The notes under the pieces are model-generated. The model ran no database searches. It had not been told where the DNA came from and was given only the letters and a program-made list of their open reading frames with translations. DNA of 64,000 bases from Mustelus asterias (taxonomy: Eukaryota). The stretch lies in NCBI RefSeq assembly GCF_964213995.1, contig NC_135812.1, positions 28,272,001 through 28,336,000 of the forward strand. The letters are read 5' to 3'. Shown in pieces: positions 4,687 through 46,782 of this stretch. Both the position numbers and the translations under genes were made by a program. Positions within the stretch are counted from its first letter, which is position 1; every line of letters starts with the position of its first letter.

Positions 4687-4884
4687 GCTGGGATCCAGGC
4701 TCCTGTCTGCAGAGTCTCTGCCCAGCAAACAGTAAAGGGCTCTGATGAAAAGTCACCCAATACTCGAAACGTTGGCTCTATTCTCTCCCACAAACGCTGT
4801 CAGACCTGCTGAGGGTTTGCCAGCATTTTTCAGTTTTTGTTTCAGATTTCAGCACCTGCAATATTTTGCTTTTATTCTGAACAA

Positions 4885-5412
4885 TAACACAGTGGTTGGC
4901 TCTGCTGCTTCACAGCACCAGGGACCCGGGTTCGATTCCCGGCTTGGGTCGCTGTTATGTGTGGAGTTTGCACGTTCTCCGCATAGAAACCCTACAGTAC
5001 AGAAAGAGGCCATCTGGCCCATCGAGTCTGCACCGACCACAATCCCACCCAGGCCCCACCCCCATATCCCTACACATTTACCCGCTAATCCCTCTAACCT
5101 ACGCATCTCAGCACACTAAGGGGCAATTTTAGCATGGCCAATCAACCTAACCCACACATCTTTGGACTGTGGGAGGAAACCGGAGCACCCGGAGGAAACC
5201 CACACAGACATGGGGAGAATGTGCAAACTCCACACATGTCTGCATGGGTTTCCTCCGGGTGTTCCGGTTTCCTCCCACGGTCTGAAAGACGTGCTGGTAT
5301 GGGGCATTGACCCAAACAGACTGTGGCGACTAGGGGAATTTCACAGTAACTTCATCGCACTGTTAATGTAAGCCTTACTTGTGACTAATAAATAAATAAA
5401 CTTTAAACTTTA
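4885..5412 (+). mobile_element. tRNA-derived V-SINE with an antisense V-SINE (4983-5236) inserted
   Basis: B box GGTTCGATTCC and V-core GTGTGGAGTTTGCACGTTCTCC...GGTTTCCTCCGGGTG split by the inner copy. Confidence 0.8.
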
Positions 5413-5984: not shown

Positions 5985-6850
5985 TCTGCAAGAGATGGTG
6001 GGAATGCAGCCTCAGAACTTTGGTGAGGTCAGATAAGATCGTTTGCTGCACTTCCTATGACAACTGAACAAGCTGATTCTGGAGAGCCAACGTCTACCAC
6101 ATACATGTGCTGCATGTGAAGTTATCCCTTGCTGGTGGTGAGGGGTGGTGTCTACTGACACCTTGGTGGAAGGCTGCCATCTGCTTTGGAGCTTTTGAAA
6201 CCACATCTCCTCTTGGTGGAAAATTCTTACCTAATAGTTGGTGTCGCCATTTGCATCAAATATCAGCTAGAGTTTCCCACTTGTCATGATTGATGTTGAA
6301 GGCTTTCAATCTCTCTTTTGACCTCATCCTTGAATCGAAGATTTGGGCACCTTTCTAGTCTCTTAGCATAGGCTATCTCCCCGCAGAGCATATTTGTGGG
6401 GGGTTTTGGCCATCTTCCGTCCTGTGCACATACCCAAGCCAGCAAAGTTTCCTTTGCTTGATTCATGCTCATAAGCTCAACGTGTCTGCTCCAGAAAAGA
6501 CAGCTTAGAGTCATAGAGTTTTTCAGCACAGAAAGAGGCCCTTTGCCCCAACATGTCTGTGCCTCATCAAGCACCCATCTATTTTAATCCCATTTTCCAG
6601 CACTTGGTTCGATATTGGTGAATTTGTTTTTCCATGTGATGCCGAGGTTGCGCCATACATTCGAAAGATGGAAATAATTTTGCTTTTTTTTTTGATAGGT
6701 GTAAGTTGTCCAAGCTTCACTGCCACACAGCAACATGCTGAGGATACATACTTTGTAGATAAGGATCTCAGTCTTGTGATCAATTTGTTGTTTTCCATGC
6801 CCATTTTGTTAGTTGGCCAAAGTTGGTGGCTGCCTATCCAATGTGTGTGA
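5985..6850 (-). mobile_element. Degenerate RTE-like LINE fragment with short CR1 3' insert at ~6507-6610
   Basis: Minus-strand remnants similar to RTE C-terminus (...DGRWPK...LCGEI...RPNLRFKD..KR). Confidence 0.55.
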
Positions 6851-7819
6851 ATCATAGAATCTCTACATTGAAGAAAGAGGCCATTTGGCCCAATGAATCT
6901 GCATCATCCACAATCCCCCCAGGCCCGATACCTGTAACCCCATATATTTAACCTGCTAATCCCCTGACACTAAGGGGCAATTTAGCAGGGCCAGTCAACC
7001 TAACCTGCACAGCTTTGGAGTGTGGGAGGAAACCGGAACAGCCAGAGAAAACCCACGCAGAATGTGCAGAATGTGCAGAGACAGTGACCCAAGCAAAGAA
7101 TTGAACCCGGGTCCCTGGCGCTGTGAGACAGCATTGCTAACCACTGTGCCACTATGCCACCCCACACATGGGGCTTCAGTTTAACGGTTCATTTACACAT
7201 CTAAAAGTGAACCACTTCCATTGTACTGCACTGGAATATTAGTCCAGATTTTGTACTCAAGCCATCAGAATGGGATTTCATCCAACAACCTCCAACTCAG
7301 AGGCAAGAATGCTACCAATTGAGTCCTAACTGATACATCACCTATGTACACACACATATAAATGCTAATTTTCCCTTTTCAGTAGAGGGCAGATGCACAC
7401 ACTTTAGAAATGAAGTCAGGTTCTTTCTGTCTGTTCTCAGAGCTTTGACAAGTGAAATTGTGCACAGCAGTAGATTTGCAAACTGGGACCAGCTCCCCAA
7501 TATTTAGGAATAACAAAATAGATGCCTAATTGGAGCCAGTGCAATACAGTAGAGGCTATGTCCTCAGCACATCCCAAAGAGGTCAAACATCCCAGCCAAT
7601 TCTTGAGAGTCCCTGGATTGTGACTGACCATCATAGTGAAGGTTCATTCGGGGAGGCGCTTAACATATTAAGAGACTTCATTGGGAACATATAGAGGTGA
7701 AATCAGGCATCAGAGAAAATGCACAAACCTCCAAGAAATGCATCTACCCGACCCTCCAAGCACCACCTGTCTCGCATGTGGCAGAGTCTGCATAATGCAT
7801 ATTGCACTTGTCAGTCATC

Positions 7820-9499
<1,680 letters not shown>

Positions 9500-11090: not shown

Positions 11091-11644
11091 TAATGTCCTT
11101 CAGGGAAGGAAATCTGCCATCTTTACCTGGTCCGGCCTACATGTTACTCCTGATCCACAGCATTGTGGTTGATTCTTAAATGTCCTCATGTGGCAATGTT
11201 GCAGGAATGGTAATGGCGTGAAACCAGATGAATGTAGGTTAGGTTGATTGGCCATGCTAAATTGCCCCTTAGTGTCAGGGGGATTAGCAGGGTAAATACA
11301 TGGGGTTACGGAGGTAAGGCCTGGGATTGTGGTCAGTGCAGACTTGATGGGCCGGATAGCCTCCTTCTGCACTGTACGGATTCTATGATTCTAAGATTCT
11401 ATGAGTGCAGTCCCATCCACCTGGACAACAGTGGAAAGGCATCAGAGGATAATGGTGTGGTCAACTGTGTCAAAGGCTGCAGGCAGGTTGAGGAGTTTAA
11501 CTTCATCACAGCCACATAGATGGTTATTTCTGACTTTGATAAGAGCTGTTTCGAGACTGTAGCATGGGCGGAGACCTGATTGGTGGGATTCAAATATGGA
11601 GTCCTTGGAAAGATGAACATGGATTTGACAGAAATACTTCAATT

Positions 11645-13678: not shown

Positions 13679-14527
13679 CATGGAGAGAGGGGGAGGAAGT
13701 TGAATGGTGAGCAGTTTATTGGGAATAGGGCTGAGGGAGCAAGAGGTGGGCCTAATGGACAAGGTGAGCTCGGAGAGCACATGAGGGGAGGTTGGAGAAA
13801 AACTAGAGGAAGATTTGAGTTCTAGGCTAGGGTAGGAAGGAACTTTAGAGGAAATTTTGTCTGGTGGGCTAGTGGAAGGGTGTGGAGTGGCAGAAGCAGC
13901 TAATCAGATGGTCTCAACCTTAGTGACAGAGAAGCCCTCATTTCCTCATACCCATTGTTGGAGGTAAGGGTAGATGAAGGGATTGAAGAAGAGTTTGCAG
14001 TGGGAAAAAAAAGTTAGTGGTTATCTTTGCATCCTAGGATGATCATGAATTGGTGAGTTATTTTAGCAGATAACAGCAGGATCTGATGGGTGCTTTTTGT
14101 GGTACAGACAGATCTGGTGATGAATGGCTAAACTAGTTGTCCTCCATATCCCTTAATGCCTGTGTCCCTTGAATTAGAAGGTATGGAGATGAGGGATGTA
14201 CCAGTAGGAATGGAGTAAGAGTTTTAACAACGCCAGGTTAAAGTCCAACAGGTTTATTTGGTAGCAAATGCCATTAGCTTTCGGAGTGCTGCTCCTTCAT
14301 CAGATGGAGTGGATATCTGCAGATATCCCTAAGCAATCTGGTTAGTTCTGTTTCAGTCCTTAACAAGTTTAAGACCAAAACAATTCCTCTTCATGGGTCA
14401 ATAATCACATGGCATAACTGGGATTGAGAGCAACCCAATAATTGGATGTGCAGTAGTGAATAGCTGACCTCTGTACTGTGAGTGATTTGGCCAAGGTGGT
14501 CAATCTCACAAAGGTAGGGAGACTATT

Positions 14528-14793
14528 AGGACAGAGTTGAGGAGGAACTTCTTCTCTCAGAGGGTGGTGAATCTCTGGAATTCTCTGCCCACTGAAGTGG
14601 TGGAGGCTACCTCGTTGAATATGTTTAAATCACGGATCGATGGATTCCTGATCGGTAAGGGAATTAGGGGTTATAGGGATCAGGCGGGTAAGTGGAACTG
14701 ATCCACTTCAGATCAGCCATGATCTTATTGAATGGCGAGGCAGGCTCGAGGGGCTAGATGGCCTACTCCTGCTCCTATTTCTTATGTTCTTAT
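14528..14793 (+). mobile_element. Short 5'-truncated CR1 (same subfamily as 19148-19884)
   Basis: Near-identical reverse complement of 19155-19413; TTCTTATG-type tail. Confidence 0.85.
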
Positions 14794-14977
14794 TACTACT
14801 CAGAGTCTGTGCAACTACAAGTAGGATAAACTTGGATGGTGGATGTTGTTGTGGCCAATGATACTGGAGCCTATTAGCAGCTCATCTACTAAGGCATGAT
14901 CAGTGTAGGTGAATTAGGAAGGGAAGTAAAAGAGCAAGATGTAAGCAGAGTGCCGTTGAATCCTGATTTTAAACCTC

Positions 14978-15294
14978 TTTTAAAAAATTTATTTATCCAA
15001 TTCAATCCAATCAAGTCCATTTCAGAGTTTCAACAAGTTGAGACATTCCCGATCCAAGCTGACAAGAAAAGGCTCTCACCTCCTGTCTTGGGCTTGATCT
15101 ACATGATCCAAGCGCTGATTGGAGTAGGCATTGCACCTCCTCCAAGGCTTGATCTCATTTGCATCTTAGCCAAAAGGCCGAGATGCCGCTTTAAAAAATT
15201 GCTTCAAATGAAGCTAAAATGTAACCTAATGACTTCAACCAAGTACAGCATGTCGATACTACACTTGATCTTAGCCAAAAGGCCGAGAAGCAAT
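14978..15294 (-). mobile_element. U2 snRNA-headed short retroposon, copy 1
   Basis: 15294-15255 equals U2 nt 1-40 with 1 mismatch; non-U2 body shared with 46100-46422; internal U2 nt 7-27 at 15183-15163; A-rich tail. Confidence 0.85.
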
Positions 15295-15532
15295 TTAGAG
15301 CCACTAAGATTGATTGTGATATATGTTACAACTTTTTTTAGAAATGTTCTTTCTTGTAACCACGAGAAGGTAGCTATTTTATGTGAACAAGATTATATTG
15401 TAATTATGTTATTGTATACTGTAATTTTGATATTGTGATTGTTATTGCTGGCCTGTATTACATCATGATGCACATTTGTAATGTATGTGGTTATATCTTT
15501 AAAGTGGCGAGCAATGATATATTTCTTTACCA

Positions 15533-16485: not shown

Positions 16486-16664
16486 GCCACCACTCTCAAA
16501 ATGTTTGCTTATCTCCTCACCGATGATTTATAATTGCCCTGATACCAGTTATCATTTGATCGGTCATTCATAGTAACCACATTAATGTCGCTAGAATATT
16601 ACATTATGGCAGGCATCACAGCTAATTCATGTTGCCACCTTATATCTGGTACTAGCAAATCCAG

Positions 16665-17301
16665 TAAGAAGTTTAACAACACCAGGTTAAAGTCCAACAG
16701 GTTTATTTGGTAGCAAAAGCCACACAAGCTTTCGGAGCCCCAAGCCCCTTCTTCAGGTGAGTGGGAATTCTGTTCACAAACAGGGCATATAAAGACACAA
16801 ACTCAATTTACATGAATGATGGTTGGAATGCGAATACTTACAGCTAATCAAGTCTTTAAGATACAAACAATGTGAGTGGAGAGAGCATCAAGACAGGCGA
16901 AAGAGATGTGTATTGTCTCCAGACAGGACAGCCAGTGAAACTCTGCAGGTCCAGACAAGCTGTGGGGATTACAAATAGTGTGACATGAACCCAATATCCC
17001 GGTTCAGGCCGTCCTCATGTGTGCGGAACTTGGCTATCAGTTTCTGCTCAGCGACTCTGCGCCGTCGTGTGTTGTGAAGACCGCCTTGGAGAACGCTTAC
17101 CCGAATATCAGAGGCCGAATGCCCGTGACCGCTGAAGTGCTCCCCAACAGGAAGAGAACGGTCTTGCCTGGTGATTGTCGAGCAGTGTTCATTCATCTGT
17201 TGTCGCAGCGTCTGCATGGTTTCCCCAATGTACCATGCCTTGGGACATCCTTTCCTGCAGCGTATCAGGTAGACAACGTTGGCCGAGTTGCAAGAGTATG
17301 C
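16665..17301 (-). mobile_element. 5'-truncated Penelope-like element: GIY-YIG endonuclease plus pseudo-LTR with hammerhead core
   Basis: Minus frame SCNSANVVYLIRCRKGCPKAWYIGETMQTLRQQMNEH...GLNRD; CTGAAGA..CGAAAGCTT core near 16725-16757; 14-bp TSD ACTAGCAAATCCAG (16651-16664, 17302-17315). Confidence 0.92.
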
Positions 17302-18719: not shown

Positions 18720-20060
18720 CTTGCGGGGAACATAAAAATTGATTGCAAAGGTTTCTATAGGTATGTGAGGAGAAAAATATTGGTGAAGACAAATGTTGAT
18801 CCCTTGCAGTCAGAAACAGGAGAATTTCTAATGAGGAACAAAGAAATGGTTGACCAGCTGAATACATACTTTGGTTCTGTCTTCACAAAGGAAGACATAA
18901 ATAAGATACCAGAAATGTTGGGGAACACAGGGTTTAGTAAGAGGGAGGACTTGAAGGAGGTAAGTATTAGTAGAAAAATGGTATTGAGGAAACTAATGGG
19001 ATTGAAGGTCAATAAATCCCCAGGGCCTGATAATTTACATCTCAGAGCACTTAAGGAAGTGGCCCAAGAAATAGTGGATACATTGGTGGTCATCTTCCAA
19101 GACTTGATAGACTCTGGAACAGTTCCTACAGATTGGAGGGTAGCTAAAGAATATAAGAACATAAGAAATAGGAGCAGGAGTAGGCCATTTAGCCCCTCGA
19201 GCCTGCCCCGCCATTCAATAAGATCATGGCTGATCTGAAGTGGATCACTTACCCGCCTGATCCCCATAACCCCTAATTCCCTTACCGATCAGGAATCCAT
19301 CTATCCGTGATTTAAACATATTCAACGAGGTAGCCTCCACCACTTCAGTGGGCAGAGAATTCCAGAGATTCACCACCCTCTGAGAGAAGAAGTTCCTCCT
19401 CAACTCTGTCCTAAACTGACCCCCCTTTATTTTGAGGCTGTGCCCTCTAGTTCTAGCTTCCTTTCTAAGTGGAAAGAATCTCTCCACCTCTACCCTATCC
19501 AGCCCCTTCATTATCTTATAGGTCTCTATAAGATCCCCCCTCAGCCTTCTAAATTCCAACGAGTACAAACCTAATCTGCTCAGTCTCTCCTCATAATCAA
19601 CACCCCTCATCTCCGGTATCAACCTGGTGAACCTTCTCTGCACTCCCTCCAAGGCCAATATATCCTTCCGCAAATAAGGGGACCAATACTGCACACAGTA
19701 TTCCAGCTGCGGCCTCACCAATGCCCTGTACAGATGCAGCAAGACATCTCTGCTTTTATATTCTATCCCCCTTGCGATATAGGCCATTTGCCTTCTTGAT
19801 CACCTGTTGCACCTGCAGACTGGGTTTTTGGGTCTCATGCACAAGGACAGTAGCATGTTGTAATTTTTTTCCATTTAGGTAATAAAGTAATCCCATTATT
19901 TAAAAAGGGAGATGGAGAGAAAGCAGGGAATTATTGAGCAGTAAGCCAAATGTCAGTAGTGGGGAAAATTCTAGAATCCATTATCAAAGATTTTATAGCA
20001 AAGTACTTGGACAACAGTGGCAGGATTGGACAGGGTCAGCATGGATTTATGAAAGGCGAA
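18720..20060 (+). mobile_element. CR1 LINE fragment split by an antisense younger CR1
   Basis: ...KSPGPDNLH...VPTDWRVA at 19147 resumes as VIPLFKKG...QHGFMKG after ~19885. Confidence 0.85.
19148..19884 (-). mobile_element. Young CR1 3' end nested in an older CR1
   Basis: Open frame LYRALVRPQLEYCVQYWSPY...ELRRNFFSQRVVNLWNSLP; nearly identical to 14528-14793. Confidence 0.9.
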
Positions 20061-27099: not shown

Positions 27100-28626
27100 T
27101 CACCAAAACTTTAAGGTAATATCATTGATGTGTAAAATGTAGACAACGAAACAATTGCAGAACATATAAAGCAAAAGTACAGATAAGGAAATAATTGTGT
27201 TGCTATGAATAGTATCTATCATGAGATTCACCAAACCAGTCAAGATATTAGATTGCAGGAAAAACAGCAGTTGGTTTCTGCTTACAGCCTCAATAAGACA
27301 AAAATGTATACTGGTTTTATCCACCTTTCCAGAAGGACTGCTTTTCAACAAAGTCCTATCCTTCTCATGTTGGGAAGAACCTCGTAAAATGTTCCATGAA
27401 CTTGGCACATTTGAAATCCCCGAAATAACTTTGACAAATACTAAAATAAGATCAGCCAGCATATGAATCATCAGAAAAAACAAACTCTGCCCAACCGTCC
27501 ATAAAACAAAACTCAGGTTGGCCATCCGGCGAGATACGGTCTCGGTGAGATTCTCAGACACAAGCAGTAGCAGCCACATTAGCAAAAAGCCCATCAAAAG
27601 GGAACCTTGTACTTTTATCCATTCTATCACCAGTGTCCTCTTCTTCATTATGAAAACGCCGGCCTGTACGCCAGCCATGTAAATAGCTAAGTACCCTAGC
27701 AATGAAAAGAGTCCTTCTCTGTTGGCATTAATGAACCCAACCCTGGTGTCTTTGCCATCACTTCCATGCAATATAAATTGCTTCAGATTTGTAGTTTCAA
27801 GAAGCAATTGATAACCGATGGCAATGCTAGCTGACAAGATCCAAGAGCTTCTAACAGGGCATAATATCAAAAGAAAAGATGATAGGATCCTAACTATAGC
27901 CAGTGTGAAAAAGAAGTTCCAATGTAAACCATATTCAGATATGTGCTCATGATAATCCACTGCTCTAACACTTAGTAGACGAGCTAATCCTAAAAAAACT
28001 AAGGGCCATACTGCTATGATCTGTTTAATCATAAAACTAAATTTGGAATGTGATGTATTTTTGTTCCTCTGCCTTGCTTCAGGAGAAACAAGGGCATTTG
28101 CAAAAACAAAAGCAGCCACTCCAAAATCCATAATTCCAGTCCCATAGGTTTCAGCTTTAGCATAGCGTCTTGGAAAAATTGGAAAGTCCACAGCTAGGAT
28201 GCTGATGCCAGTCTTTATGTTAACAAAGACGCGGAACAAAGTGACAAAGGGAACGTAATTCACATCCAAGCTGGTTTCTAAAAAAGATCCGATTACTTCT
28301 TTTAAGTGTTGATGGGAATAGTGCTTTCTTTGACTGTATATCTGAAACACAGATAGCCCAAGTACAGCTGCTAGAACCAGCACCATCCAGTGAAGTATAT
28401 CTGACAAAACAGTGCAGGACAGTACAAGAGATGCCACCAGCAAAATAAAATCAATCAGCAGGAGTCTTTTCCACGATGATGCGGTACTTGGTCCAACAAA
28501 ATACATTAATATCAGTCCTCGGCAGTTGACACATAACGCAGACAGAATTAAACCCAATAAATTCTCAGCCAGTGTAGTACCAGTCAGGTTACTGATAAAT
28601 GCTTCTTTTAAATCTTTTTGTGCCAT
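27100..28626 (-). CDS. PIGW: PIGW, GPI inositol acyltransferase (GWT1 family), single coding exon, 508 aa
   Basis: Intact ORF with MAQKDLKEAFISNLTGTT start, ILAVDFPIFPRRYAKAETYGTGIMDFGV, EHISEYGLHWNFFFTLA, NANREG, VSRRMANL and a KFW end. Acceptor cttcag|GAAAA at 28647/28646. An in-frame ATG at 28641 would add 5 aa. Confidence 0.96.
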   Translation of the reverse strand: MAQKDLKEAFISNLTGTTLAENLLGLILSALCVNCRGLILMYFVGPSTASSWKRLLLIDFILLVASLVLSCTVLSDILHWMVLVLAAVLGLSVFQIYSQRKHYSHQHLKEVIGSFLETSLDVNYVPFVTLFRVFVNIKTGISILAVDFPIFPRRYAKAETYGTGIMDFGVAAFVFANALVSPEARQRNKNTSHSKFSFMIKQIIAVWPLVFLGLARLLSVRAVDYHEHISEYGLHWNFFFTLAIVRILSSFLLILCPVRSSWILSASIAIGYQLLLETTNLKQFILHGSDGKDTRVGFINANREGLFSLLGYLAIYMAGVQAGVFIMKKRTLVIEWIKVQGSLLMGFLLMWLLLLVSENLTETVSRRMANLSFVLWTVGQSLFFLMIHMLADLILVFVKVISGISNVPSSWNILRGSSQHEKDRTLLKSSPSGKVDKTSIHFCLIEAVSRNQLLFFLQSNILTGLVNLMIDTIHSNTIISLSVLLLYMFCNCFVVYILHINDITLKFW

Positions 28627-29509
28627 ATTAGGATTGATCATTTTTCCTGAAGACATCTGATGATATGCTGCATTTGGTAATAGATTGTTGGAAAGCAAAC
28701 CAGAGTATATCATTGATTTACTAACCATACAAAGGTTATTGACTCAAAATGTTAACCTTGTCTGTCTCTTCAACGATGCTTGAGTATTTTGCTTTTCTTA
28801 TGCCTAGAATTAGGTAGGGTGGTTTCTGTTGGGTCAGTAGGGGAGATAAAATGGCTCTTACAAGGGCAAACAGTTTTTTTAAAAAAAGAGTAATCCTATA
28901 ACATTCTTATATCAGAAGAGAAAATGCTGGAAATTCTCAGCAGGTCTGGCAGCATCTGTTACTGCATCCGCAGTAATTTGCTTTTATCCTTGTATCAGAT
29001 GCATTTTAAAGGCATCTTCGTTTTTGGCTTTAGGATCCTTGTCCAAAAGAAGTTACTCCTAAGTTTTTTTTGGCTGTTGCAGTGCTTAGAAGTGACACTG
29101 GGCAGTTCACACTGAACGAACGAAGCATCTGGCAGCCACTTGGTGAGGGATAGCAGCCGACACTGGGCAGTCACTTGGTGAGGAGCCGGAGGTGTGAAGC
29201 CAAGTTTTAGCTGGGGCTCTGGTTCACATTGTCACCCCCACAACCAGGCGCAGGTTTCATCCAGTCAGGGCCACATCTGAAATGGAAACCAATAATGTCA
29301 GCCCAACACTCCCAACATTGACACCATTAGAATGAGGATTATTGTGCTCAACTTTACCAGCGGCCTGTTTTCACTGTTGTCCCGGGGCGCTGGGCCGGGT
29401 TTCCGCTGGAGTGTCCGGCGCTCACAGGCCGAGGGAGCGACTCCTCTCACCCCACGACAGTTCCCACTCCTCCCCGTCCCGCTCTCACTCCGGGCTCCCC
29501 GCTCGCGCT

Positions 29510-29685
29510 GCCCGGCCACGGCGCTCGCGGTCCCGCGCATGCGCCTCCTCGCCACACTGCTCCCGGCCCCGCGCTTGCGCCTCCTCGCCACACTGCTCCC
29601 GGCCCCGCGCATGCGCTTCCTGGCCACGCCTCTCGCGGCCCCGCGCATGCGCCTCCTCGCCACCCTGCTCCCGGCCCCGCGCCCG
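29510..29685. repeat. 36-bp tandem repeat (~4.5 copies) carrying NRF1 sites
   Basis: Unit CCGCGCATGCGCCTCCTCGCCACACTGCTCCCGGCC; motif period is exactly 36 (29535, 29571, 29607, 29643, 29679). Confidence 0.93.
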
Positions 29686-29762
29686 CTGAGGTGAAAGATC
29701 AGGGGGTGGGAACGGGAACAGTTGCCGGATCTCGCGAGACCAGCTGGCGACGGAGAGCGGGA

Positions 29763-29843
29763 ATGGCCGCTTCAAGCATCCACCCGGAGCGGCAGGACGC
29801 TGTCCCCAAGCGGAGAGCCCCCTGCCCGGCAGCCGGCACACAG
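29763..29843 (+). CDS. MYO19: MYO19 putative first coding exon (MAASSIHPERQDAVPKRRAPCPAAGTQ)
   Basis: GGAATGG Kozak context, 27 codons, strong phase-0 donor CAG|GTAAGA; in frame with the exon at 39534. Supported by splice logic, not homology. Confidence 0.55.
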
Positions 29844-30710
29844 GTAAGAGCGGCCCCTGCCTGCCTATCTGTCTGTCACCAACAGGGGAGCTGGAGGACT
29901 TGGAGAGAGTGGATTTGATTTGATTTATTATTGGCACATGTATTAGTATTCAGTGGAAAATATTGTTTCTTGCGCGCTACATAGACAAAGCATACCGTTC
30001 ATAGAGTACATAGGGGAGAAGGAAAGGAGGAAGTGCAGAATTTAGAGTTACAGTCATAGCTAGGGTGTAGACAAATCTGTTTAATATAAGATAGGTCCAT
30101 TGGGAGAGAGCAGAGGGGGCACTGGGAGTAGGAGGGGGAACCTTGGACAAGGGTTCGAAGACAAGGGATGCGATGGGCTGAGGGCAGAGTGACTCTGTGG
30201 TAAAAGGGGCACTGGGGGCAGATGGGGACAGGACTGGGGTCTGAGGGCAGAGGGAATTGGGTGAGGGGGTCTGTGCATAGAGGGGTCTGGGGGCAGACGA
30301 GGACAGGATAGGGGATTGGGGGGGTCTGTGGGTAGAGGGGCACTGGGGATGGGGGGCTCTGAAGTCAGAGGGGGTGGGGATAGATTAAGGGTAGAGAGGC
30401 AAGGAGGGTCTGTGGGTAATGGTAAAGGGGATTGGGGCTGGGAAAGGGATTGAGGGACAGGAGATGGTGGGCAGGGGGACAAGGTATGGGGTAGGGGGCA
30501 GAGGATGAGCGTAGGGGTTGGGAGATTGGGGTCCTCAGTGCTAGGGGGTTAGGGATAAGGTTGAAGGAGGTATGGGAGCAGATTTTGGGGGCTGCCTGTG
30601 AGTCAGCCTGCATATGTCACCATCTGCTAATCCTCTCTGTTCGGCCTTTACTGTACTTGGGAGTGTTAAATGAGGCAAAGTGTTTTATTTTCCTGCACAG
30701 GAATAATCAT

Positions 30711-30900
30711 GATGTGGAGATGCCGGCGTTGGACTGGGGTGAACACAGTAAGATGTCTCACAACACCAGGTTAAAGTCCAACAGGTTTATTTGGTAGCAA
30801 ATACCATAAGCTTTCGGAAGGAGCAGCGCTCCGAAAGCTTATGGTATTTGCTACCAAATAAACCTGTTGGACTTTAACCTGGTGTTGTGAGACTTCTTAC
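30711..30900. mobile_element. Fold-back Penelope-like insertion
   Basis: ~70-bp near-perfect inverted arms (30748-30900); 14-bp TSD ACAGGAATAATCAT (30697-30710, 30899-30912). Confidence 0.88.
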
Positions 30901-33900
30901 AGGAATAATCATCACAGGGGCAATGTCATCTTCATTGCAGTCCCATTGCACTGTACACATTACCTTGCTTCTGAATAAATTTCTCCTGTTTGATTGTGAG
31001 ACAAGCTGCAGGGTTTTTTTAAACATTTAAAATGTGCAAATGTTAAGGAAGAGGGAAAGGGTATAGAAGGATCACAAATATTGAAGTATAGAAACACTGC
31101 CAACCTTAAGCTGGCAATTTGAAATCACACACTTGATAATTGTGACTAAATTTCAATTGTACTTGATTTGCTGTAAAGTGCCGTAGGATGTCTTGAAGTT
31201 GAGAGTTGCATAAATGTAAGTCTTTCTGACAGTGAAGTGACTGGTCACTAAACTAATTTATTTTAACATGGTGACGATTACTGATTTCTGAGGAGAACAA
31301 TCTGCATGATTATACATAGGGGTCTTCCTTTAACTGATTCTCAGACAAAACTGGTATATAAATATTCCGTTGCAAATTTGCTATTATAATGACACCACTT
31401 GTTAAATATTTGCTTTTCTTTTTGGTCCTGAGAAGCCTATTTGAATTTTAATAGTATTTTCCAAACTGACTTGCGCTATCCCTACACACACAGACACATG
31501 CACGCTCGCTCGCTGGAAAATCTCAGCAAGTCTGACAGCATCTGTGGAGAGAGAAAAGAGCCAATGTTTGAGTCTGGATGACCCGTCATCCCTATCCCTT
31601 ATCTGCTCGGAACTATGCCTGTGTGTAACAGATCAGGAACAGAATCTAGCTTAGCTGTGATGCGTGTCACAGCTGAATGGCTTGCTAACTGTACAACATT
31701 GTACGGTATCCCCTGAGCGTGCTGGGTGATTTCTTGAAACATATTTTAGAATTACACTTTAATTTTTTTTTCTCGTGACTGGTGTTGGCTCTGCTTTGCA
31801 AACACTGGGAGCAGTAACCACACAATTCACTGATGTGTTTGAACTTGTATTGCTGGATTTTGAGTAGTTTCATGCAGCTTCTTACAATGCTGATTGAATT
31901 CAACATGGTCATACTCTCAGCTTAAAGAACTGTTTGAAATATGTTGAAAATTATACACCTATTAAATTTGGCTTTACAGTGGAAATAACAGGTCAGTGGA
32001 AAGGTTGTGTTGAAGGGCGGAATTTTACCGAAGGTAATAGTTGAGCTATTAAATTTTTGGTAGGCATGGCAATAATGCTGTATCTTTGATCTCCTCCTAT
32101 GAAACAGTAAGAATGGGATTGTCTCCCTTCCCGAGTCTGTTGGAATCATCTTGCTGTGTCTGACTTTATGGAAACAGTCAAGCCCTTAACAAATTTTTGA
32201 GTCTAACTCCACCCTGTTGAAAAATGTGATGTTGTAATTAGTAGGATTATAGAAATTGTTTCAGAGTGGGCCGCGGGTGGTTCTGTTCCAAAAGTAGCAA
32301 GCTAGAAGTGACTCACAACAGCCATGATGCATTCTGTGAAGTTACTGTCCTGGCTTGTGAGCAATTCCTTGGCTGCAGTGTATTAATTTCACTTCAGCAA
32401 CTTTTAATAGTTGTAACATTTAACATTTTTGTATTTGCTCTTTTGAGTATGCATTTAGGCGATTGTAAAACAAAATTATTTTCGAAAGTACACAAATGTT
32501 GTCCCCATTGGAGTTTTTAATGGATGGAATACAGCTGTGCGGTATTTGCAGAAACAGAAACCTGTGCCATACACGGATCGGTGTTCAGTGGTTCAGAAAG
32601 CAAATTTTGTGGTGACGTCAAAGTTGGGGAACTCTTCAGTGGAAAAGACCTCCAACACACCAAAACATCGGATCTTTATTTGACTTCAGTCTAATCTTAA
32701 TGTCTGGCTGGAAATATGATTGGATTGTCATTTATTTACAATTAAAATTTGTTTTTAGCTATTTGTTAAAACAACCTCCTCATTTATCATTTGAAACATT
32801 GGGGGAGCTGGAATTTGACTTTTAAAAGCATTAGCCAATTTTCAAAATGCTGACAGACAAATAAAACAGCAAATAAACTCATGTAACCAAAAAACTCATT
32901 TGGGATTCTCCCAAGATGAAATCATTGCCAAAGCTAGCTCTAGCAGACGAAATTGAGAAATCCAGATATCTTTATAATAAAGCTAAATAATATGTGTTCA
33001 TGAACCTTTTGATTCCATGTTTAAACACTGAGTAATCTTTCTGAATATATTAAGTTTGTAATCAATGAATTGGTGAAGTGGGTGAGCCCTTTGTTCTTTT
33101 CAAAAATAAAGGGCCAAATCTGTAAATGATGGAATGATTTATTGGCTTTGAATCATATCTTGTCTTACTTTTGAAATGTGTTCCCAGTCACAAACAACAA
33201 TTAGACTGTGATGGGCACGAACTGCTACTGTTCATTGAAAATTTTATGCTTAAAGGCATCTGAGCTAATAGAATGTGGGCTAAGTGTAACAATTGCTGGT
33301 AAGAATTTTTAAAGTGATTGAGACTTACTGATTACAGCAATCACCCGGAAAGATGATATAAAATCAGTCTTGAATTGTTCTGTTTCAGAAAAGCAAAGAG
33401 CCTTTCTTCTAAAAGATAATGTATCTAAATATTCATTAGAGGTACCCTCTGGACAGCTGTGGAGCACAATCGCAACTAAGAGCACTAATTATTTAATAAA
33501 ATATCCTTTGGTCCTGAGTACAATAAATGCACAAAATGTTTTTTGACAACAGTGTTTGGATTTTTAAAAATTTGATTTAATATTGTCACATGTATTAGTA
33601 TACAGTGAAAAGTATTGTTTCTTGCGCGCTATTCAGACAAAACATACCGTTCATAGAGACGGAAAGGAGCGAGTGCAGAATGTAGTGTTACAGTCATAGC
33701 TAGGGTGTAGAGAAAGATCAACTTAACGCAAAGTAAGTCCATTCAAAAGTCTGACAGCAGCAAGGAGAAGCTGTTCTTGAGTCGGTTGGTACATGACCTC
33801 AGACTTTTGTATCTTTTTCCCGAAGGAAGAAGGTGGAAGAGAGAATGTCCGGGCTGCATGGAGTCCTTAATAATGCTGTCTGCTTTGCCAAGGAAGTGTA

Positions 33901-36900
33901 GACAGAGTCAATGGCAAACTTAGGCCAAATTAACATGGATTTGGACCACTGAAATATGGAATAAAGTTGAAAGTGTTTCAAATGTATTGAGACTATTTGG
34001 AATTTTTAAAAAATGAGCAGAAGACATGGATGTAGAGGGTTCAGTTGTACTAAGATTGAATAGATCAATAAGGCAGTGCCTGAAGTGGATAAGTATGGGA
34101 TAATTAAATTGGACTTGCACTGAGGTACCAAAGCCATGCTGGAATGGATCTGTATTGAATGATGTTGGATATCATGCTGCAGGCGATGAAGATCTTCCAG
34201 CTGAAGTCCTGTAAAACACAGGAAGCTTAAGACAATTATGAAAATCTATGGGTCCAGTGTGTGTGAGAAACTTCCAGACTTCGTCCCCAAGATTGTGACC
34301 ATTGTTCAGGTGTCTCTGCTGCATATCCCCTCCCTCATGCTCATCTAGTGCCCTGAACCCATGCGCTTTTTCTAGTTTCTCTTCCATATTCTCTTGTGCT
34401 GTCTCTGAGTTCAACTTGCCTACGAGACCCACTTTTTGTTCTCATGGTGCCATTCCCACAAAGCCGCAGACACAGCTTCACTTCCTGACCCCCATGCAAG
34501 CCAACATTATAAATTAATCACCCTCTTCAGGTATTATCCCTCTTCCATCTAAAACCACTGTCATACTCTTTTCATTAAAAAAACTTCACTCATCTGTCTT
34601 GGCAAACTGCTACCACATCTCCTACCTCCCCTTCATATCCAAACTCTTTGACATGGTCATCATCTCCCAGACCTGTGCCTATCTTTTCCTGCAACTCCAT
34701 GTTTTAAAGTGTCTAATCAGGTTCAGCCCATTTTTGTTTGATTATGCTTCTGTTAAGTGTCAATTTCAATGTTGAAAACGCTATAAAAATTGAAATTGTT
34801 TTGCTAGTTCAATAATGGAGAGGCATCAGGACATAAGGTTGAGGGAGCACAACTTACACTTTTATAGTCTTTGATCAGCATCACAACAAACAATTCTTCA
34901 AAGAATCAACACTTCTCCGCTTATCAGGATGAGAAACGTTGCTGAGAAACAGAAGTTATTTTCATCTTTAACACTAAGCGCAACTATCTAGCACTCCTAT
35001 AGCACTCTGTTCCAACAATGTGCCTGACTCATTGAATGCATTTCTTCTATTCTTGTGTGGCAAGTTCCATTTCTCTCTGCAACTTTCCTTGGATTTCTGT
35101 GTGAGATTAGCAATCATTGTTAAATTTGGAAAAGTTTTGTGCTGTGCTACTTGCATTTATACAACTGGATTGAAATTGGCTAAACTCATTTCATATCAGA
35201 TATTCTATAGCTGTCAGATAGAGGGGACTTTTATGCCATCCTTTTTAGCTTGATTTGAACTTGAGGTGGAAGGCTGGTGGATGAACCACTGCGCAACAAT
35301 TCCCTAACCTAACCGTTTCTCAAATAGACTCTGTGTGAGTTAGCGGCATCCTTATTGTGGGGCAGTGGGTAGCACCGTAACTAATTCTGCCCCATGTTTG
35401 TTAATCCAGTTGCCATTAGATATTTGTGTATAAGAGTAATTACTCTTCTAGGTGTATGAGGGAACGTGACTTTGGGTTCTGTTATGTTGGTGCTTTTTCT
35501 TTTACATGTGAAATAACCAAGTTTTTCAGCCTTCCATTTGTCCACGTTTCTCTTTCCGTCATGTTTAACTATTTTTGTTTTTGAGAAGAGTGGATGATGT
35601 GCACTTCACACTTCAGGAAACATTGACTCATCTGTGGCTTGGCATAAATAGGCTGTCTAGCAATATGGAGCCATTGAGAGAAGTGATGGAGAGGCCAAAA
35701 TGAATATCATCAGCATATATGTCTGCAGATGATGTCAGCCTGTACTTAAAGAATGGAGTTAAGACAGGCTTTACAGAGAGCTCTGAGTTAATACTATCTG
35801 CCTGGGTCAAGTTTTCTCTATTGGAGATGTGCAATTGTAAGTGGGTGCAAGGAGTAGATCCATGGGTTGAATAATGGAAGAGAATGGTGTGGTTAATATG
35901 CTGAAATATGGAGGGTTGAGGATACAGAGAGATAAACAAGTTGTTATTTGTAAGTAGGACTTGGGTGATCTCAGTGCTGTGAGTAGACTAAAGATTACAG
36001 TGGAGGGATTGAAAGGGAGATTTTGGAGAGAAGGACACAGAGTTGGGGGTTGATGACATATCTGAGGACCTTGGATTAAAAAGGTGGTTGGAACTTGGTG
36101 TGGTAATTGTAACAGATGGATGGACCCAAAGTAGAGTTTTGCGAAGTGCTGAATCTAGATTTGAAAAGTATATTTTTTAAAGTTTATTTATGGAAAACCA
36201 TTAGTTCTCTTCAAATGAACATCAAGCTGGGAATTGAACTGGGTCCCTGGTGCTGTGAGGCAGCAGTGCAAACCACTGTGCCACCGTGTATATGGATGGT
36301 GCCTGAGGAAAGAAAGGCAATGTTGACGAGATGTTATTTAGTGGGGAAGAGAACTTGAAAATGGAAGTTGGGGGTTCATGAAAGAAATTGGCTTGGAGAG
36401 TTGATGGGGTGATGGCAGAAAAAGCAAAGATGATTGTGTGATGGGAGAATCTTGTGGGATGGACAAGAGACTGTGGGAGGTCAGGAGCAATGGGGGAGGA
36501 GAGTGAAGTAGCAGCAGAAGCAGGTATTCTCAGACTTTAAAACTATTTATCGTCACTGCTGTACTGCGTCTGTACTTCGCTTTCCTCGTTTAAGATATCC
36601 CTTAAAACTTAACTCTTTGACCAAGCTTTTGATCACTTGATATACTATTTTCTTATGTGGCTCAGTATCATGTTTGTTAATGTTCCTGAGAAAAGTCTTT
36701 GGGCATTTTATGTTACAGGCATTACATAAATTGAAGTTATTGTAGGGAAATGGCAGTCAGTTTGTGCACAGCAAGCTTCCACAACCGGCGTGAAGTAAGC
36801 CATCAGCTCATTGTTTTGTAGGTATCGATTGAGGAATATTAGCCAGGATACTGCAGTAATGTCCATGCTCTTTGAACAGAATTATGGGATCATACGTTCA

Positions 36901-37689
36901 CCTGGAAGGCCAGGCAGGACCTCTGTTTAATCGCCCAACTGAAAGGTGGCACCTCTGACAGTCGCTTGGGTGTCAGTCCAGATTTTGTGCTCAAGTCTCT
37001 GGAGTGTAGCTTGAATCCACTGGGCCAAAGCTGTCCCACTTGGGTTTAAGGAATTTGATTTTAGGAAGTGAGGGTGGGGAGAATCATCACCTTCAGCAAG
37101 TAGTTGAAAGGCCAAGAGAGAGAGAGAGGAATTAAGTTTCAAACAACTTCACTGCTTTTAATAAGACACCAGAACAGCCTTGCCCTGAGGGGTTTGCAGT
37201 GTGTGCACATTAAATACAGCCATTGTATAAATGTTTCAAATTAATTTGCAACGTCCTCCATTGATGCAGGTCAACATTTTTTTGATGTGAAAATAATTCC
37301 TGATATGCATTAGGCAGGCTGCGTTGGAAAGGATCACACTTGCTACTCGCACCTAGAGTGCTAACCTGTAAATGTGCACTTACTTTGTGCTGAAAACTCA
37401 GTTCCTTGTGTGGGTGACCACGTACTCGCTGATGTTGCATTTGGAGAGAACTAATGAATTTCCAATTTTGTTGTTTTAACTCGTTTTCCTACAATGCTTA
37501 ATTTAAAACCACTATATCTCACATGAGGCAGATACAGAATTGTGGTATTTATTCAGAAGAACTGAACTAAAGCTCTGACTGCTGATAGTCGCAATAATGA
37601 GGTAATGCGTACTGTTCCAGTTGCCAAGTTCTGCACACATGAGGATGGCCTCAACCAGGATCTTGGGTTCATGTCACACCACCTGTAAC

Positions 37690-37980
37690 CATTTGGTCTG
37701 GGCTTGCAAAATCTTACTAACTGTCCTGGCTTGAGACAATTCATACCTCTTTAACCTGTGCTTGACCCTCTCTCCACTCGCATTGTCTGCACCTGTAAAA
37801 CTTGATTACCTGTTAAGACCTGCATTCCAACCATTATCTTATCATTGTGTCTGTATCTACATATGCCCTGTTTGTGAATCCAACTCTTTACTCACCTGAT
37901 GAAGGAGCAGTGCTCTGAAAGCTCGTGCTACCAACTAAACCTGTTGGACTTTAATCTGGTGTTGTGAGATGTCTTACTGT
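37690..37980 (+). mobile_element. Penelope-like pseudo-LTR with hammerhead core, sense to MYO19 pre-mRNA
   Basis: CAC-CTGATGA-AGGAGCAGTGCTCT-GAAAGCTC-GTG near 37893-37928, followed by the shared AAACCTGTTGGACTTTAA end. Confidence 0.75.
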
Positions 37981-38829
37981 TCTAGTTGGTTAGAGAATCT
38001 TTGTGTCACACCTGATGATGATATGCAAGAACAATATGGCTGAAAGCTCTTTTTATTCCTGTGATGACTGCTGTATTCAAGCATTCTTGTACTGAAGTAT
38101 GACATTGAAGCAACAGTAGTATTTTCTTTTAATTTGCGGAGAAAAACAGCATTGCTTAACATTTTTTAATGGAATTGTGGGGCTACTTTTTAATGAAATT
38201 GTGAGGCTAGATTAATTTTCTTTCAATTTAAAAATGCTCTAATTTCTCTCTGCTGCATTTTCTACCTTCCCACACTCCCACGGGCATCAGTTCATGGGGC
38301 TATTGTTCTATAGAGCAGGTATGCTTGTACGTCACTTAAGTGACCGATTGTTTGTCCCACAAGCCTGGTCAATGAGTGGACTTGCAACATTGTGTCAGTA
38401 GGTCATAATAACCATCTGTCAGCTAACTCTGCTCCTCCTTCACCTTCTGTTCACAAAGATAGGTTTTCCAGGAGGATGTCATACAGGACTGGAAATGCTC
38501 AACAATTTCACTTCTTCTCCATCTGTATCACGCTGGCTGAGATCAGCTAACTCAACATCAGAGTTGGAGTTGATCCGGGGAATTCCATAATTGCATATGA
38601 CCTTGTCTTCTTCAACATGACGTTTTACAGTGCTTGTAAAGAAGCAGCATTTTTATTCTAGGCACCTGATACCGACATTAAATGCTTCAAGGTTACTTGT
38701 CGCTCCCTCCTCATTGTATCCCAGCTCCAACTCGTACAGTATAGCACTCGCTTGCTATACCAGTGTGGCCACTTCCAATTTTTCACTTCATTCATCTTTG
38801 AAAAAGATTGCCAATTGGGACAATTTATT

Positions 38830-39040
38830 AATAAAAGCAAATTACTGCGGATGCTGGAATCTGAAACCAAAGGAGAAAATGCTGGAAAATCTCAGCAGGT
38901 CTGGCAGCATCTGTAAGGAGAGAAAAGAGCTGACGTTTCGAGTCCAAATGACAAAGCTTTGACAAAGGATCATCTGAACTCGAAACGTCTGCTCTTTTCC
39001 CTCCTTTCAGATGCTGCCAGACCTGCTTAGATTTTCCAGG
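38830..39040. mobile_element. Palindromic Penelope-derived element (same family as 570-785)
   Basis: CTGGAAAATCTCAGCAGGTCTGGCAGCATCTG...CAGATGCTGCCAGACCTGCTTAGATTTTCCAG inverted arms around a degenerate hammerhead pair. Confidence 0.75.
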
Positions 39041-39533
39041 GTGAGAGATAATTTATTGTTGCAGTCACACATTGGATTCTTATAGCCAGCATGGAGAGGA
39101 GTCTCCTCCTCCTCTTGTTCTAAGCAGGATTTCAACTGAGATTCCAGACCTGAAAAGCAGTGTTCCACTTAACAGCTCAACCCCAGTGCCCCAGCTCCAT
39201 ATGTATGTAAAGAACAGAAACAGTGACCACTCTTCTGGAGTTCTTTCTACCAGATTTATTATAAACTTAAAAACAGAATTGGATATTTTCTGTGTATTTT
39301 CAATTCTGTACCACTGACCAATATTTCATAAAAAGAAGAAAAGGAAGTTTAGTAAATATTGGGTACGGTTTAGTTGTATGCAACACACTTGATGGTAATT
39401 TAACAAATGCAATAGTGCACCAATACATTGTTTACTGCTCGCTTAAGATGAATACATGTTAGCAATAAAAATTAAGCAAGTGGATTCACACTCGAGAAAA
39501 AATGCATTTTTAAATGTTTCTGGTTGTTTTCAG

Positions 39534-40845: not shown

Positions 40846-41757
40846 TGCTAGTGGGGTTCCCCGGAGACCAGGTATCGCTGAAACTTCAGCCAATACAAAG
40901 ACTCGTGAAAGCCAGTGTCCCAGTTTAAAGACGTGTCTTTTATTTAACCAGCGATCACATGGAGAGATTATTGAAAAGTCCTAGGCTTCTCTCGGCGATT
41001 AGCAGCCTGACCTTCCCAATAACTCTGACGTACAAAGCTTAGGATAGATCAATTATACATTTCTCTTATCAAATTCTCCCACCTTTCATTAACTTTGAAT
41101 CAATCATCTTCAATACACACAAATCATTAATAACACCTGCCACATACTTTAGTCAATTGCATTTCACTAATGGGATTTCATTGGTCCGTAAAATTCAGAC
41201 GCTTCCTCCCCCTATTGCTGACTCAACTTCCTCTGTTGCTCAGCAACCACGACGCTGAGCTACAAAGGTCAAAGTTAATATTCCCACCAGTTTTCACCAC
41301 GTCACTGGCTAAACCTGACAAATGCACATCCCCATCTGAGAAGGCATTGTCTTATCTGGGCAGTGAATTAATCCTATTTATAAAGCTGCCTTGAGAACTC
41401 TGCTGTTAGCAACTCTTGTAGATAAGAACTTGCACATTCTGAGGTTTCGTTGTTTTCTAAGCATGTGGTTCTGTCTGTATGTCCCCGTACTATCATGCCT
41501 TGCAGCAACTTGCTCTTGGCTAAAGTGCACAATTACTTTATAAAATACAGTTAAGAGATTTAAAATATCTAAATATGCAGTTAAATCACAATCACTTGTT
41601 TAAATCTCTTAATTGCATTCACATGTGTAAACTGTTCCCTTGTTAGCTTATAAGTCTGATTTAGAGTCATTTAACTCAATGCTGGTAGTTCTGTTAGTGT
41701 CTTAAATGCCTAATGGTTTAAAATTTTCTCTAACCTACTAGGAATTTCTCCCCAACA
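40846..41757 (-). mobile_element. Solo LTR, ERV-like (912 bp)
   Basis: Minus strand starts TGTTGGGGAGAAATT and ends CCCCACTAGCA; 5-bp TSD GTTCA (40841-40845, 41758-41762); minus-strand AATAAA near 40940. Confidence 0.8.
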
Positions 41758-41785
41758 GTTCACATCTTTCTTTTCTGCCTCCCAG

Positions 41786-41934
41786 TTTTAAAATGTCTGC
41801 ATGCAAGATATACGACCAATGTGTTTTACACCAATGCTGGTTGTACGCTGGTGGCACTTAACCCATTTCAACCTGTGCCTAACTTGTATTCCCCTGGCAT
41901 TATGAAGGAATACCACACTGCGTCCCGACCACAG
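41786..41934 (+). CDS. MYO19: MYO19 exon (VLKCLHARY...FYTNAGCTLVALNPF...RPQ)
   Basis: cccag| and |gtaact; phase 1 to 0; myosin head N-terminal motif. Confidence 0.95.
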
Positions 41935-42525
41935 GTAACTCAAGTATAGAGTGATGATATAATGTGTATTAAACAAGAATTAATCATCATTGATTACAAA
42001 TTCTGCAACCTCAGTGATCAAAATATTAACATTTAATTTGTGTCCAATTTATTCTAACCATTTAGTCAATATAATGTATGCTGTGGTCAGATTGCAACTT
42101 TGCGCAAACCATTTAAACTTGTTCTTAAAGTTGAATAATTGAGAAAAATCCCTCTAGTTCCCAGGCCATGTGTTTTGAGAATATAAGAATAACAGATTAA
42201 AATTTGTCCCATGGTGATGATGTGATCGGAAAACTAAATTTGATCTCCACAGAACTTGCACATTCTGAGGTTTCATTGTTTCCTAAGCATGTGGTTCTGT
42301 CTGTATGTCCCCGTACCATCATGCCTTTCAGCAACCTGCTCTTGGCTAAAGTGCACAATTACTTTATAAAATACAGTTATTAGCAGCCACTGCATGTTCA
42401 CAATTGTGCTCACCTAAATTTACCAGTTTAATAACATTAATTCAATGTATTTTGCTGCTTTTACTACCATAGTGTCTTTTTATACAAATAAAAACTTCAA
42501 GAAATTAAGTCTTTCTATTCTTTAG

Positions 42526-42639
42526 GAGTTGAAACCCCACATCTTTACAGTGGCTGAGGATGCCTTCAGAAATGTACAGAGCCTCATTGAACCAGTTAAC
42601 CAGTCACTTATCGTCAGTGGGGAGAGTGGTGCTGGAAAG
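42526..42639 (+). CDS. MYO19: MYO19 exon with P-loop (ELKPHIF...NQSLIVSGESGAGK)
   Basis: tttag| and |gtaaga; GESGAGK P-loop. Confidence 0.97.
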
Positions 42640-45464: not shown

Positions 45465-45534
45465 GAAATGCATGTACACTACGGAATCACAACAGTAGTC
45501 GATTTGGAAAATACATCCAATTGCAGTTAAACAG
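45465..45534 (+). CDS. MYO19: MYO19 exon, switch I (NACTLRNHNSSRFGKYIQLQLNR)
   Basis: acag| and |gtagtt; NSSRFGK motif. Confidence 0.97.
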
Positions 45535-46099
45535 GTAGTTTTACAGATCAGCTGTGTGGATGCATTTATTCAATCTGCTCTTAAATTCTTCAAAATCATT
45601 TTCATTGCATAAGCCCATTTTTATGTTTTATTGGTTCATGGTTATAATACAGATGTATGGAATGTCATTTTAATGACACGTGTTGTGTTAGTAGATGATA
45701 GGAATATTAGGCCATTTCACTCCTTGTTGAGTTTGTCCCATTGTTCACTGAGCAGGCTGATCTGCAACTTAATTCCATGTACCCATCCTTGTCTCATAGT
45801 CCTTAAAAGCTTTGGCCAACAATAACTCAGTCTCAGTTGCAAATTTGAATCAAGTTGCTTTTTGTGGAAGAGAGCTCTAAGGTTCTACCACTTTTTGTGT
45901 GTAGAAGTATTTCCTAATTTCACTGTCCTTAATTTTTAGCTTATGTCCACTCACCTGCAACCAGTAAAAGTAAGTTTTTCTCAATCTACACTATCTGTTC
46001 CCTTTACTATCTTGGCAACTTTGATCAACTCAACCATTAACCTTCTGAGTCTCAGGGAATACACTCTAGTTTGTGCAACCTCTCCTTGTAACTTAACTC

Positions 46100-46422
46100 T
46101 TTTTTTAATACTTTTCCAATTCAATCAAATCAAGTCCAATTCAGAGTCTCAACAAGTTGAGACATTTCCGATCCAAGCTGACAAGACAGGGTATGCAACC
46201 CTTTACCCTATCTTGGGCCTGATCTACATGAGCCAAGCTGATTGGAGTAGGCGGACATCCCCGCCTCCAAGGCTTGATCTCATTTGCATCTTAGCCAAAA
46301 GGCCGAGATGCCGCTTTTAAAAAATCGCTTCATATGAAAATGAAGCTTAAATGTAACCCAATGACCTCAACCAAGTGCAGCATCCGCATAACTAAACTTG
46401 ATCTTAGCCAAAAGGCCGAGAA
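46100..46422 (-). mobile_element. U2 snRNA-headed short retroposon, copy 2
   Basis: TTCTCGGCCTTTTGGCTAAGATCAAGTTTAGT head, same body as copy 1, A7 tail, flanking direct repeat AACTCTT (46095-46101, 46421-46427). Confidence 0.85.
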
Positions 46423-46782
46423 CTCTTGGAGTTGAAGAGTAATGCACTCCCTCATAGGTCAATATAGTCTTCCTGATGTGTGATCCATACTGGTCAAGAA
46501 GGTCCACAGTTTGATCCTTATCTGTGTTGAATTCTCTGATCTATTAGGTTGGACTGATATTGCCTGAAAGCGCCAATAGGTCATTTCGCATCAACAGACC
46601 TTCCTGAAAGTGTAGGAATAAAGTGAAGACAGGAATGATCTTGGTCATGATGTCCTTTATGGAAAAATAACACTATCTCTTTTGAATTTTGTGTGTAAAG
46701 AACGATTACTTAGGCAAAGTAGGTTCTGAAATTTCTGCACCTATTCAGGTTACAAAACTGCTTACCAATTTGTTCTTGGTAG

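Follow-up and report, generated by a model that had tools for sequence, protein, structure and literature searches.

A U2 snRNA-headed, SINEU-like retroposon family in a shark genome

Genes and repeats of the locus

The window, that is, the whole 64-kb stretch of shark DNA that was analysed, contains an intact single-exon PIGW (GWT1) gene at 27100-28728 (-), with 542 aa from the upstream ATG, most relatives having ~508 aa. The five closest relatives of its protein are from sharks (83-88%), followed by rays and a chimaera (65-73%). Head-to-head with PIGW, nine Myosin_head exon frames in model order mark a myosin gene at 41734-61604 (+), which we take to be MYO19 by vertebrate synteny. An intronless 199-aa frame with Ribosomal_L6 domains (8665-9264, +), which shows no ATG-started ORF of 120 aa, is probably a processed ribosomal protein pseudogene, and two low-complexity or tandem regions (29296-29949, just upstream of PIGW, and 62688-63445) carry open frames on several strands with no Pfam match.

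Several repeat families are dispersed among these genes. A tRNA-type SINE family, presumably HE1/V-SINE-like, with A and B boxes 44-45 bases apart, occurs at 47120-46784 (-) and in further copies at 4982-5236, 6850-7162, 11226-11390, 36223-36288, 50270-50567 and 51184-51396, several of the copies being nested or inverted. Near-perfect palindromic repeats of one family (29/29 paired; 30748-30900 and 47360-47446), which we assume to be Penelope-terminus- or MITE-like, give spurious Rfam miRNA matches and have relatives at 2044-2316, 14214-14312, 16660-17034 and 37623-37983. A second family of short inverted repeats maps to 582-771, 4739-4876, 31505-31590, 38843-39047 and 54006-54128, and two CR1 3'-end fragments in opposite orientation (14526-14793 and 19153-19414), 96% identical, represent a young LINE subfamily.

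Besides these repeats, the window holds two copies of a composite element that starts with a U2 snRNA fragment (Table 1). Copy 1 and copy 2 (46422-46109) align with 84.8% identity over 316 columns (E 5e-93), with 28 substitutions at 292 aligned positions; all junctions of the composite are common to both, and their flanks are unrelated to each other, which bears out the earlier note in regarding the recurrence ~31 kb away as the sign of a repeat family. A profile built from both copies has exactly two matches in the 64-kb window, which at 95% corresponds to 3.8-113 copies per Mb, provided that the window is typical (n=2 copies); the anatomy described below is drawn from the same two copies.

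Table 1. Position of the U2-headed element, its parts and its insertion marks in the window
Feature	Position	Strand	Remarks
Copy 1 of the U2-headed element	14978..15294	minus	full length, 317 bp; without clear target duplication
U2 snRNA head, nt 1-40	15255..15294	minus	Rfam alignment
Anti-head arm	15223..15251	minus	inverted copy of U2 nt 11-39, imperfect; next to the head
Hairpin B, small	15201..15214	minus	loop 6 bases longer in copy 2
A-T6-AAA run, end of module 1	15190..15200	minus	11/11 identical to the 3' end of copy 1
Second U2 5' piece	15161..15186	minus	remodelled; identical in both copies
Octamer ATGCAAAT, perfect	15157..15164	minus	both copies
Hairpin C	15105..15155	minus	perfect B box 15154-15146, both copies
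Hairpin D	15051..15100	minus	tandem paralogue of C
B box in hairpin D	15099-15091	minus	perfect in copy 1, one mismatch in copy 2
3' stem-loop E	15027..15044	minus	predicted fold
Degenerate short tandem run	14995..15024	minus	period 10, 3 copies, pentamer-like; TRF score 37
Copy 1 tail: AATAAA, T6, A4	14978..14993	minus	missing from copy 2
Copy 2 of the U2-headed element	46102..46422	minus	starts at U2 nt 6, short A run as end
5' target-site duplicate AAGAG	46423..46427	minus	7 bp counting two T shared with U2 nt 6-7
3' target-site duplicate AAGAG	46097..46101	minus	copy 2
Old CR1-type LINE ORF2 3' region split by copy 2	45860..46500	minus	collinear CR1 frame on either side

The minus strand of copy 1 begins, as had been noticed, with U2 nt 1-40 (15294-15255), which reach 56.3 bits against the Rfam U2 model (gathering score 46, E 1.9e-08) in an alignment that spans 190 bases, with identity restricted to the first 40 positions. 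A 25-base motif of the head has 4 matches in the window (0.00 expected). Copy 2 lacks U2 nt 1-5 and shows a mutated branch-point sequence. Since copy 1 lies above the Rfam cut-off, copies of this kind would be annotated automatically as U2 genes. An explanation without any mobile family, by a U2 gene variant that has diverged, by a pseudogene or by local duplication, would account for that score over 190 bases and for a U run near the Sm position of the model; it is nonetheless largely refuted and deserves very little credence, as the identity stops at nt 40, the element has no canonical Sm site (the U run at 15190..15200 is followed by A instead of G), the flanks are unrelated, and copy 2 splits a CR1 element with a target duplication.

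Copy 2 is a retroposed insertion, with a 5-7-bp target duplication, 5' truncation, an A tail and an interrupted CR1. A duplication of this kind would arise by chance with a probability of 0.0024 for 7 bp or 0.063 for 5 bp. The upstream flank matches residues 36-57 of one CR1 frame from the window (E 0.016), and the downstream flank residues 77-149 of the same frame (E 6e-09). Relative to the myosin gene, copy 2 is antisense and falls within an intron (Myosin_head exons 45434-45535 and 47604-47783, +). Copy 1 shows no clear target duplication and its flanks have no match to other repeats of the window; according to the available text on the crocodilian family SINEU-2, its insertions vary as well, with duplications, truncations or no change (PMC4494074).

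The element is non-coding: it has no ORF, and most indels between the copies are not multiples of 3. Stop-free antisense frames run across both copies (14893-15438, +, 181 codons; 45940-46320, +, 126 codons). A coding role for these opposite-strand frames was discarded, as the 181-aa frame of copy 1 has no Pfam match and the frame is not conserved between the copies.

Regarding its distribution, at least half of 31 sampled words of the element are present in 14 of 24 listed public runs, from nine studies and seven organisms, six runs with 0.29-0.39 of the words being left out of the count; among the listed runs with element words there is no RNA run. As the 40-base U2 head can give only ~3% of the words, the body itself is shared across species, which is compatible with family copies or orthologous insertions alike. 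Exact patterns of the element gave no match in viral contigs, metagenomes or prokaryote genomes. A second pattern had 41 metagenome loci, which were dismissed as chance, no match extending past 24 bases among the 15 best. We are highly confident that this is a real, retroposed, U2-headed family of sharks.

Anatomy and predicted folding

Directly behind the head lies an arm that can pair with it. In copy 1, head and arm form 17 Watson-Crick and 8 G·U pairs, with no A·C and two 2x2 internal loops, and in copy 2 13 Watson-Crick and 9 G·U pairs, with no A·C and 6 other oppositions. The resulting hairpin is predicted to form only on the U2-sense strand (z -6.5 in copy 1 and -3.2 in copy 2) and not on the opposite one (-0.7 and -0.4, respectively). 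In the two-copy consensus all 24 head-stem pairs are kept, two of them through U-A to U·G changes, and copy 2 disrupts one more pair. All transitions in the arm belong to the kind that keeps a G·U pair (8/8; p 0.012, corrected for 16 G·U-type and 9 A·C-type opportunities), a bias that A-to-I and C-to-U RNA editing before reverse transcription could cause instead of selection.

The whole copy 1 is also predicted to fold strongly (MFE -101 kcal/mol, z -4.0, with 0 of 100 shuffles equally stable), as is copy 2 (z -4.9), although the complete copy 2 fold shows no strand bias (z -5.6 vs -5.7). Substitutions are not significantly rarer in stems (15/191 paired vs 13/101 unpaired positions, p 0.21). 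In the predicted fold of copy 1, native U2 stem I drops to about 0.01 and the branch-point sequence is paired, with an unpaired probability of at most 0.07. The previous suggestion that transcripts would carry the branch-point recognition sequence GUAGUA is therefore misleading, given this pairing in copy 1 and the mutation of the sequence in copy 2.

The ~270 bp downstream of the head had been described as non-U2 sequence, which does not hold, since they contain a second piece of the U2 5' end: nt 112-132 of the element are an exact repeat of its nt 7-27 in both copies, within a 54-base block that shows no differences between them. Three sites are changed in this second piece, in both arms, which is predicted to create three new Watson-Crick pairs that extend stem I. 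Hairpins C and D, which align locally with each other (p 0.0005 in copy 1 and 0.006 in copy 2), each open with a sequence similar to U2 nt 24-31.

The A-T6-AAA run at the end of module 1 constitutes a strong Pol III terminator sequence. The perfect octamer corresponds to the core of snRNA distal elements; it occurs in 4.7% of 10000 shuffles and 16 of 402 window tiles, so that it may be due to chance. In copy 2, the longer loop of hairpin B (46341-46334, -) is one base off a reverse octamer. As copy 1 has a 6-base deletion at this loop, the ancestor may have had two octamers. The search for ribozymes gave neither HDV-like nor hammerhead core motifs on the U2 strand, nor any Rfam ribozyme family, with limits of E 10 for copy 2 and E 1 for the window.

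At the 3' end, where an A-rich tail had been proposed previously, the A runs that close both copies are short, mixed with T and preceded by a degenerate 5/10-bp tandem run. The AATAAA-T6-A4 layout of copy 1 is found in 2.0% of shuffles and 8 of 402 tiles, and copy 2 ends in TT, A5 and the target duplication. As a first guess, the target duplication and the A run would fit an L1/Tx1-type partner. Like the L1 motif, the insertion site of copy 2 has a pyrimidine|purine step, yet only three of its six bases match the TT/AAAA target (as given in the available part of PMC13174262). The stem-loop and short tandem run would equally fit a partner of the stringent L2/CR1 tail type; stem-loops are common in this LINE type, and UnaL2 ends in TGTAA repeats (PMC3747384, partial text). 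The last 80 bases gave no match to LINE or SINE ends in the window (best E 0.055).

Origin and transcription

The end of the U2 head brings to mind Keno (Tx1 clade) and Utopia (RLE), which, according to the extracts available of PMC4640811, insert at the same U2 site, nt 38|39, so that the U2 sequence continues from nt 39 on their downstream side. The earlier note was right to place this site near the end of the head, which lies within 2 bases of it. It had also inferred that the element sits in a U2 gene and is transcribed from the external U2 promoter, and neither point finds support in the two copies: U2 nt 39 onward is found directly 3' of the element in none of them (0/2), the flanks are unrelated, and the ~270 bases upstream of either copy contain no octamer and no match to a PSE-like motif (two mismatches allowed). 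Candidate 3'-box-like matches after both copies were rejected, as each has one mismatch and part of it falls in unrelated flank. An unseen master copy in a U2 gene is possible.

A derivation from Keno or Utopia would require master copies inserted at U2 nt 38|39 and co-transcribed from the U2 promoter, whose RNAs carry the upstream U2 piece; the arm would belong to the element itself, as a 5' end that has evolved pairing with the target, and the copies seen would be off-target insertions. Such an origin would explain why the head ends at nt 39-40, at most 2 bases from the shared site, and why copy 1 starts at exactly U2 nt 1, and there are precedents in the partial texts at hand: some Utopia families insert outside U2 genes (PMC4640811), R2 RNAs include as many as 36 bases of target sequence from upstream, and short derivatives of R2 with internal deletions exist (PMC3774820, PMC3414825). 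Even so we consider it unlikely, not only because both copies lack U2 nt 39+ behind them and a PSE-like match in front, but also because the site of copy 2 is a CR1 frame, which is not U2-like, and because neither the second U2 piece nor the two additional starts similar to U2 nt 24-31 are predicted by it. Moreover, U2 retrocopies cut at defined single-stranded positions exist without such an element (PMC5322556, partial text).

The reading that we regard as somewhat probable is that of a non-autonomous shark retroposon of the SINEU type, independent of the crocodilian families. From the U2 head, the second U2 piece, the internal duplication, the two copies, the marks of copy 2 and the folding potential on one strand, all of them observed, we infer a stepwise construction, Pol II transcription, mobilization by a LINE and masking of the U2 segments. 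A U2 5' fragment would have been added twice by template switch during reverse transcription, together with an internal duplication of a hairpin; template switch and recurrent 5' U2 additions are proposed for SINEU-1 in the available text of PMC4494074. Full-length RNA would then be produced by RNA polymerase II from outside promoters, for instance where a master copy lies downstream of a host promoter or one of snRNA type. Shaped on the U2-sense strand, this RNA would have all its U2 segments paired away, including the U6-pairing region and the branch-point sequence, which might keep it off the spliceosome and stabilise its 5' end. Finally, a LINE enzyme would reverse-transcribe the RNA at a nick, with the A-rich 3' end as the place of priming.

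The assignment to Pol II comes from the oligo-T runs, four T4 and a T6 in copy 1 and three T4 and a T6 in copy 2, the T6 lying at nt 97-102 in both. Pol III stops almost fully at T5 or longer runs and by 65-95% at T4 (PMC8466645, partial text). As both copies span the internal T6, a Pol III stop, the simplest source of their full-length template is Pol II, and the element is, as far as its sequence indicates, probably transcribed by Pol II.

A pure Pol II model does not explain the presence of perfect A and B boxes. The U2 head itself harbours an A-box-like sequence (nt 18-28) and a B-box-like one (nt 25-33), each with one mismatch. Inside the second U2 piece of copy 1 there is a perfect Pol III A box (15172-15162, -), followed after 18 and 73 bases by perfect B boxes; the consensus of both boxes is that of PMC4333407, where the Alu spacing is 64 bases start to start. 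Among 10000 shuffles, 24 have a pair with 73-base spacing, as do 5 of 402 window tiles; the other tiles of the scan include heads of tRNA-type SINEs (e.g. 47113), which serve as control. These boxes are a lead and not a finding, because U2 gives all but one base of each, the change in the A box completes a stem, and the far B box of copy 2 is mismatched.

On this basis the element could instead be a Pol III SINE whose internal promoter derives from duplicated U2 fragments, with module 2 (from nt ~106 on) comprising the A box, the B boxes, AATAAA, T6 and the A tail, and module 1 as a second monomer in front. In addition to the A box at 15172 and the B box at 15099, 73 bases on, purines lie 14-17 bases ahead of the A box, the two modules share a U2 5' start and a final 11-base T6/A run, and the end of copy 1 has the T+ layout (PMC8466645, available text). 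We nevertheless find this improbable. With U2 supplying all but one base per box, the shuffle figure is overstated, the chance being perhaps about 1 in 16, and the A box and the stem are perfected by one and the same base. Copy 2 has a mismatch in the well-spaced B box and lacks AATAAA, while the B box shared by both copies is only 18 bases from the A box. A T4 just after the presumed start and the T6 in mid-element speak against Pol III, the bodies of modules 1 and 2 without the tail do not align significantly (p 0.11), and module 1 is present in both copies.

A related and similarly doubtful idea is that a latent Pol III kit lies in the first 33 bases of U2, its two boxes each one base off and too near one another, and that duplication spaced the boxes and single changes perfected them, giving rise to an internal promoter, a T+-like end outside mammals and an antisense arm that hides the splicing sequence. 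If true, it would explain the repeated U2 5' additions in SINEU and answer how SINEU is transcribed. In that regard, the available text of the SINEU paper leaves transcription unexplained; promoter-like sequences were not found there, and the internal oligo-T was taken to exclude Pol III (PMC4494074).

Comparison with known systems

With Keno and Utopia (PMC4640811, extracts), the shark element has in common the U2 end at about nt 38|39, and differs in having no ORF, no U2 nt 39+ and both copies (2/2) outside the U2 locus. The SIDEs and 5' ends of R2 (PMC3414825, PMC3774820, extracts) are similarly short and non-autonomous, strongly folded, and their RNA may start with host RNA-gene sequence, whereas the shark copies show neither an HDV-like nor a hammerhead core and do not lie in the target gene. 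The mammalian T+ SINEs B2, Dip and Ves resemble copy 1 in their AATAAA, T run, A tail and A and B boxes; these are, however, tRNA-derived and, in the available text of PMC8466645, reported only in mammals, whereas the shark element has internal terminators and its copy 2 lacks the signal. The shark SINEs HE1, SacSINE1 and CmiSINE are also short shark retroposons, but with tRNA heads (PMC3747384, PMC5499810, partial texts); in the window, no similarity was found between the element and the tRNA-type SINE copies.

SINEU has not been detected outside crocodilians according to the text available of PMC4494074, a statement repeated in that of a 2017 review (PMC5381603). Among titles and beginnings of abstracts no shark snRNA-headed SINE was found; Repbase, Dfam, subscription journals or supplements may well hold this family as an unnamed SINE/U entry. 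Neither SINE nor snRNA occurs in the main texts of the catshark genome paper and of the Squalomix preprint, snRNA does not occur in PMC5499810, and PMC7245038 does not mention SINEU.

In its architecture the element resembles SINEU-1 of crocodilians (PMC4494074, partial text), which likewise has a U2 head, more than one U2 piece, less than 500 bp without coding capacity, oligo-T runs inside, an A-rich end and partial duplications, with target duplications that are short or missing. Apart from the shark host, the differences are the arm, the paralogous hairpins and the A/B-box and octamer motifs, which do not appear in the SINEU-1 text at hand, where no Pol I, II or III promoter-like sequence is reported; the target of copy 2, which is CR1 and not Mariner-N4_AMi (n=2 copies); and a tail that is not plain poly(A). 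Membership of a crocodilian family is unlikely given the shark host, the element being set apart from crocodilian SINEU by description and not by body sequence. Of the features of the SINEU class, a U2 5' head, a non-coding unit of <500 bp and a shared composite are present, with target-primed marks in one of the two copies, and the proposal of a dispersed, non-coding, U2-headed retroposon family that works in a shark like crocodilian SINEU is thus supported, copy 2 carrying the marks of target-primed insertion. Its anatomy poses the questions of whether the sequences that pair in the spliceosome have to be masked once a retroposon has borrowed U2, and whether duplicated U2 fragments can be an internal promoter. 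In any case, a shark family common to several species would mean that snRNA-headed SINEs arose more than once in vertebrates.
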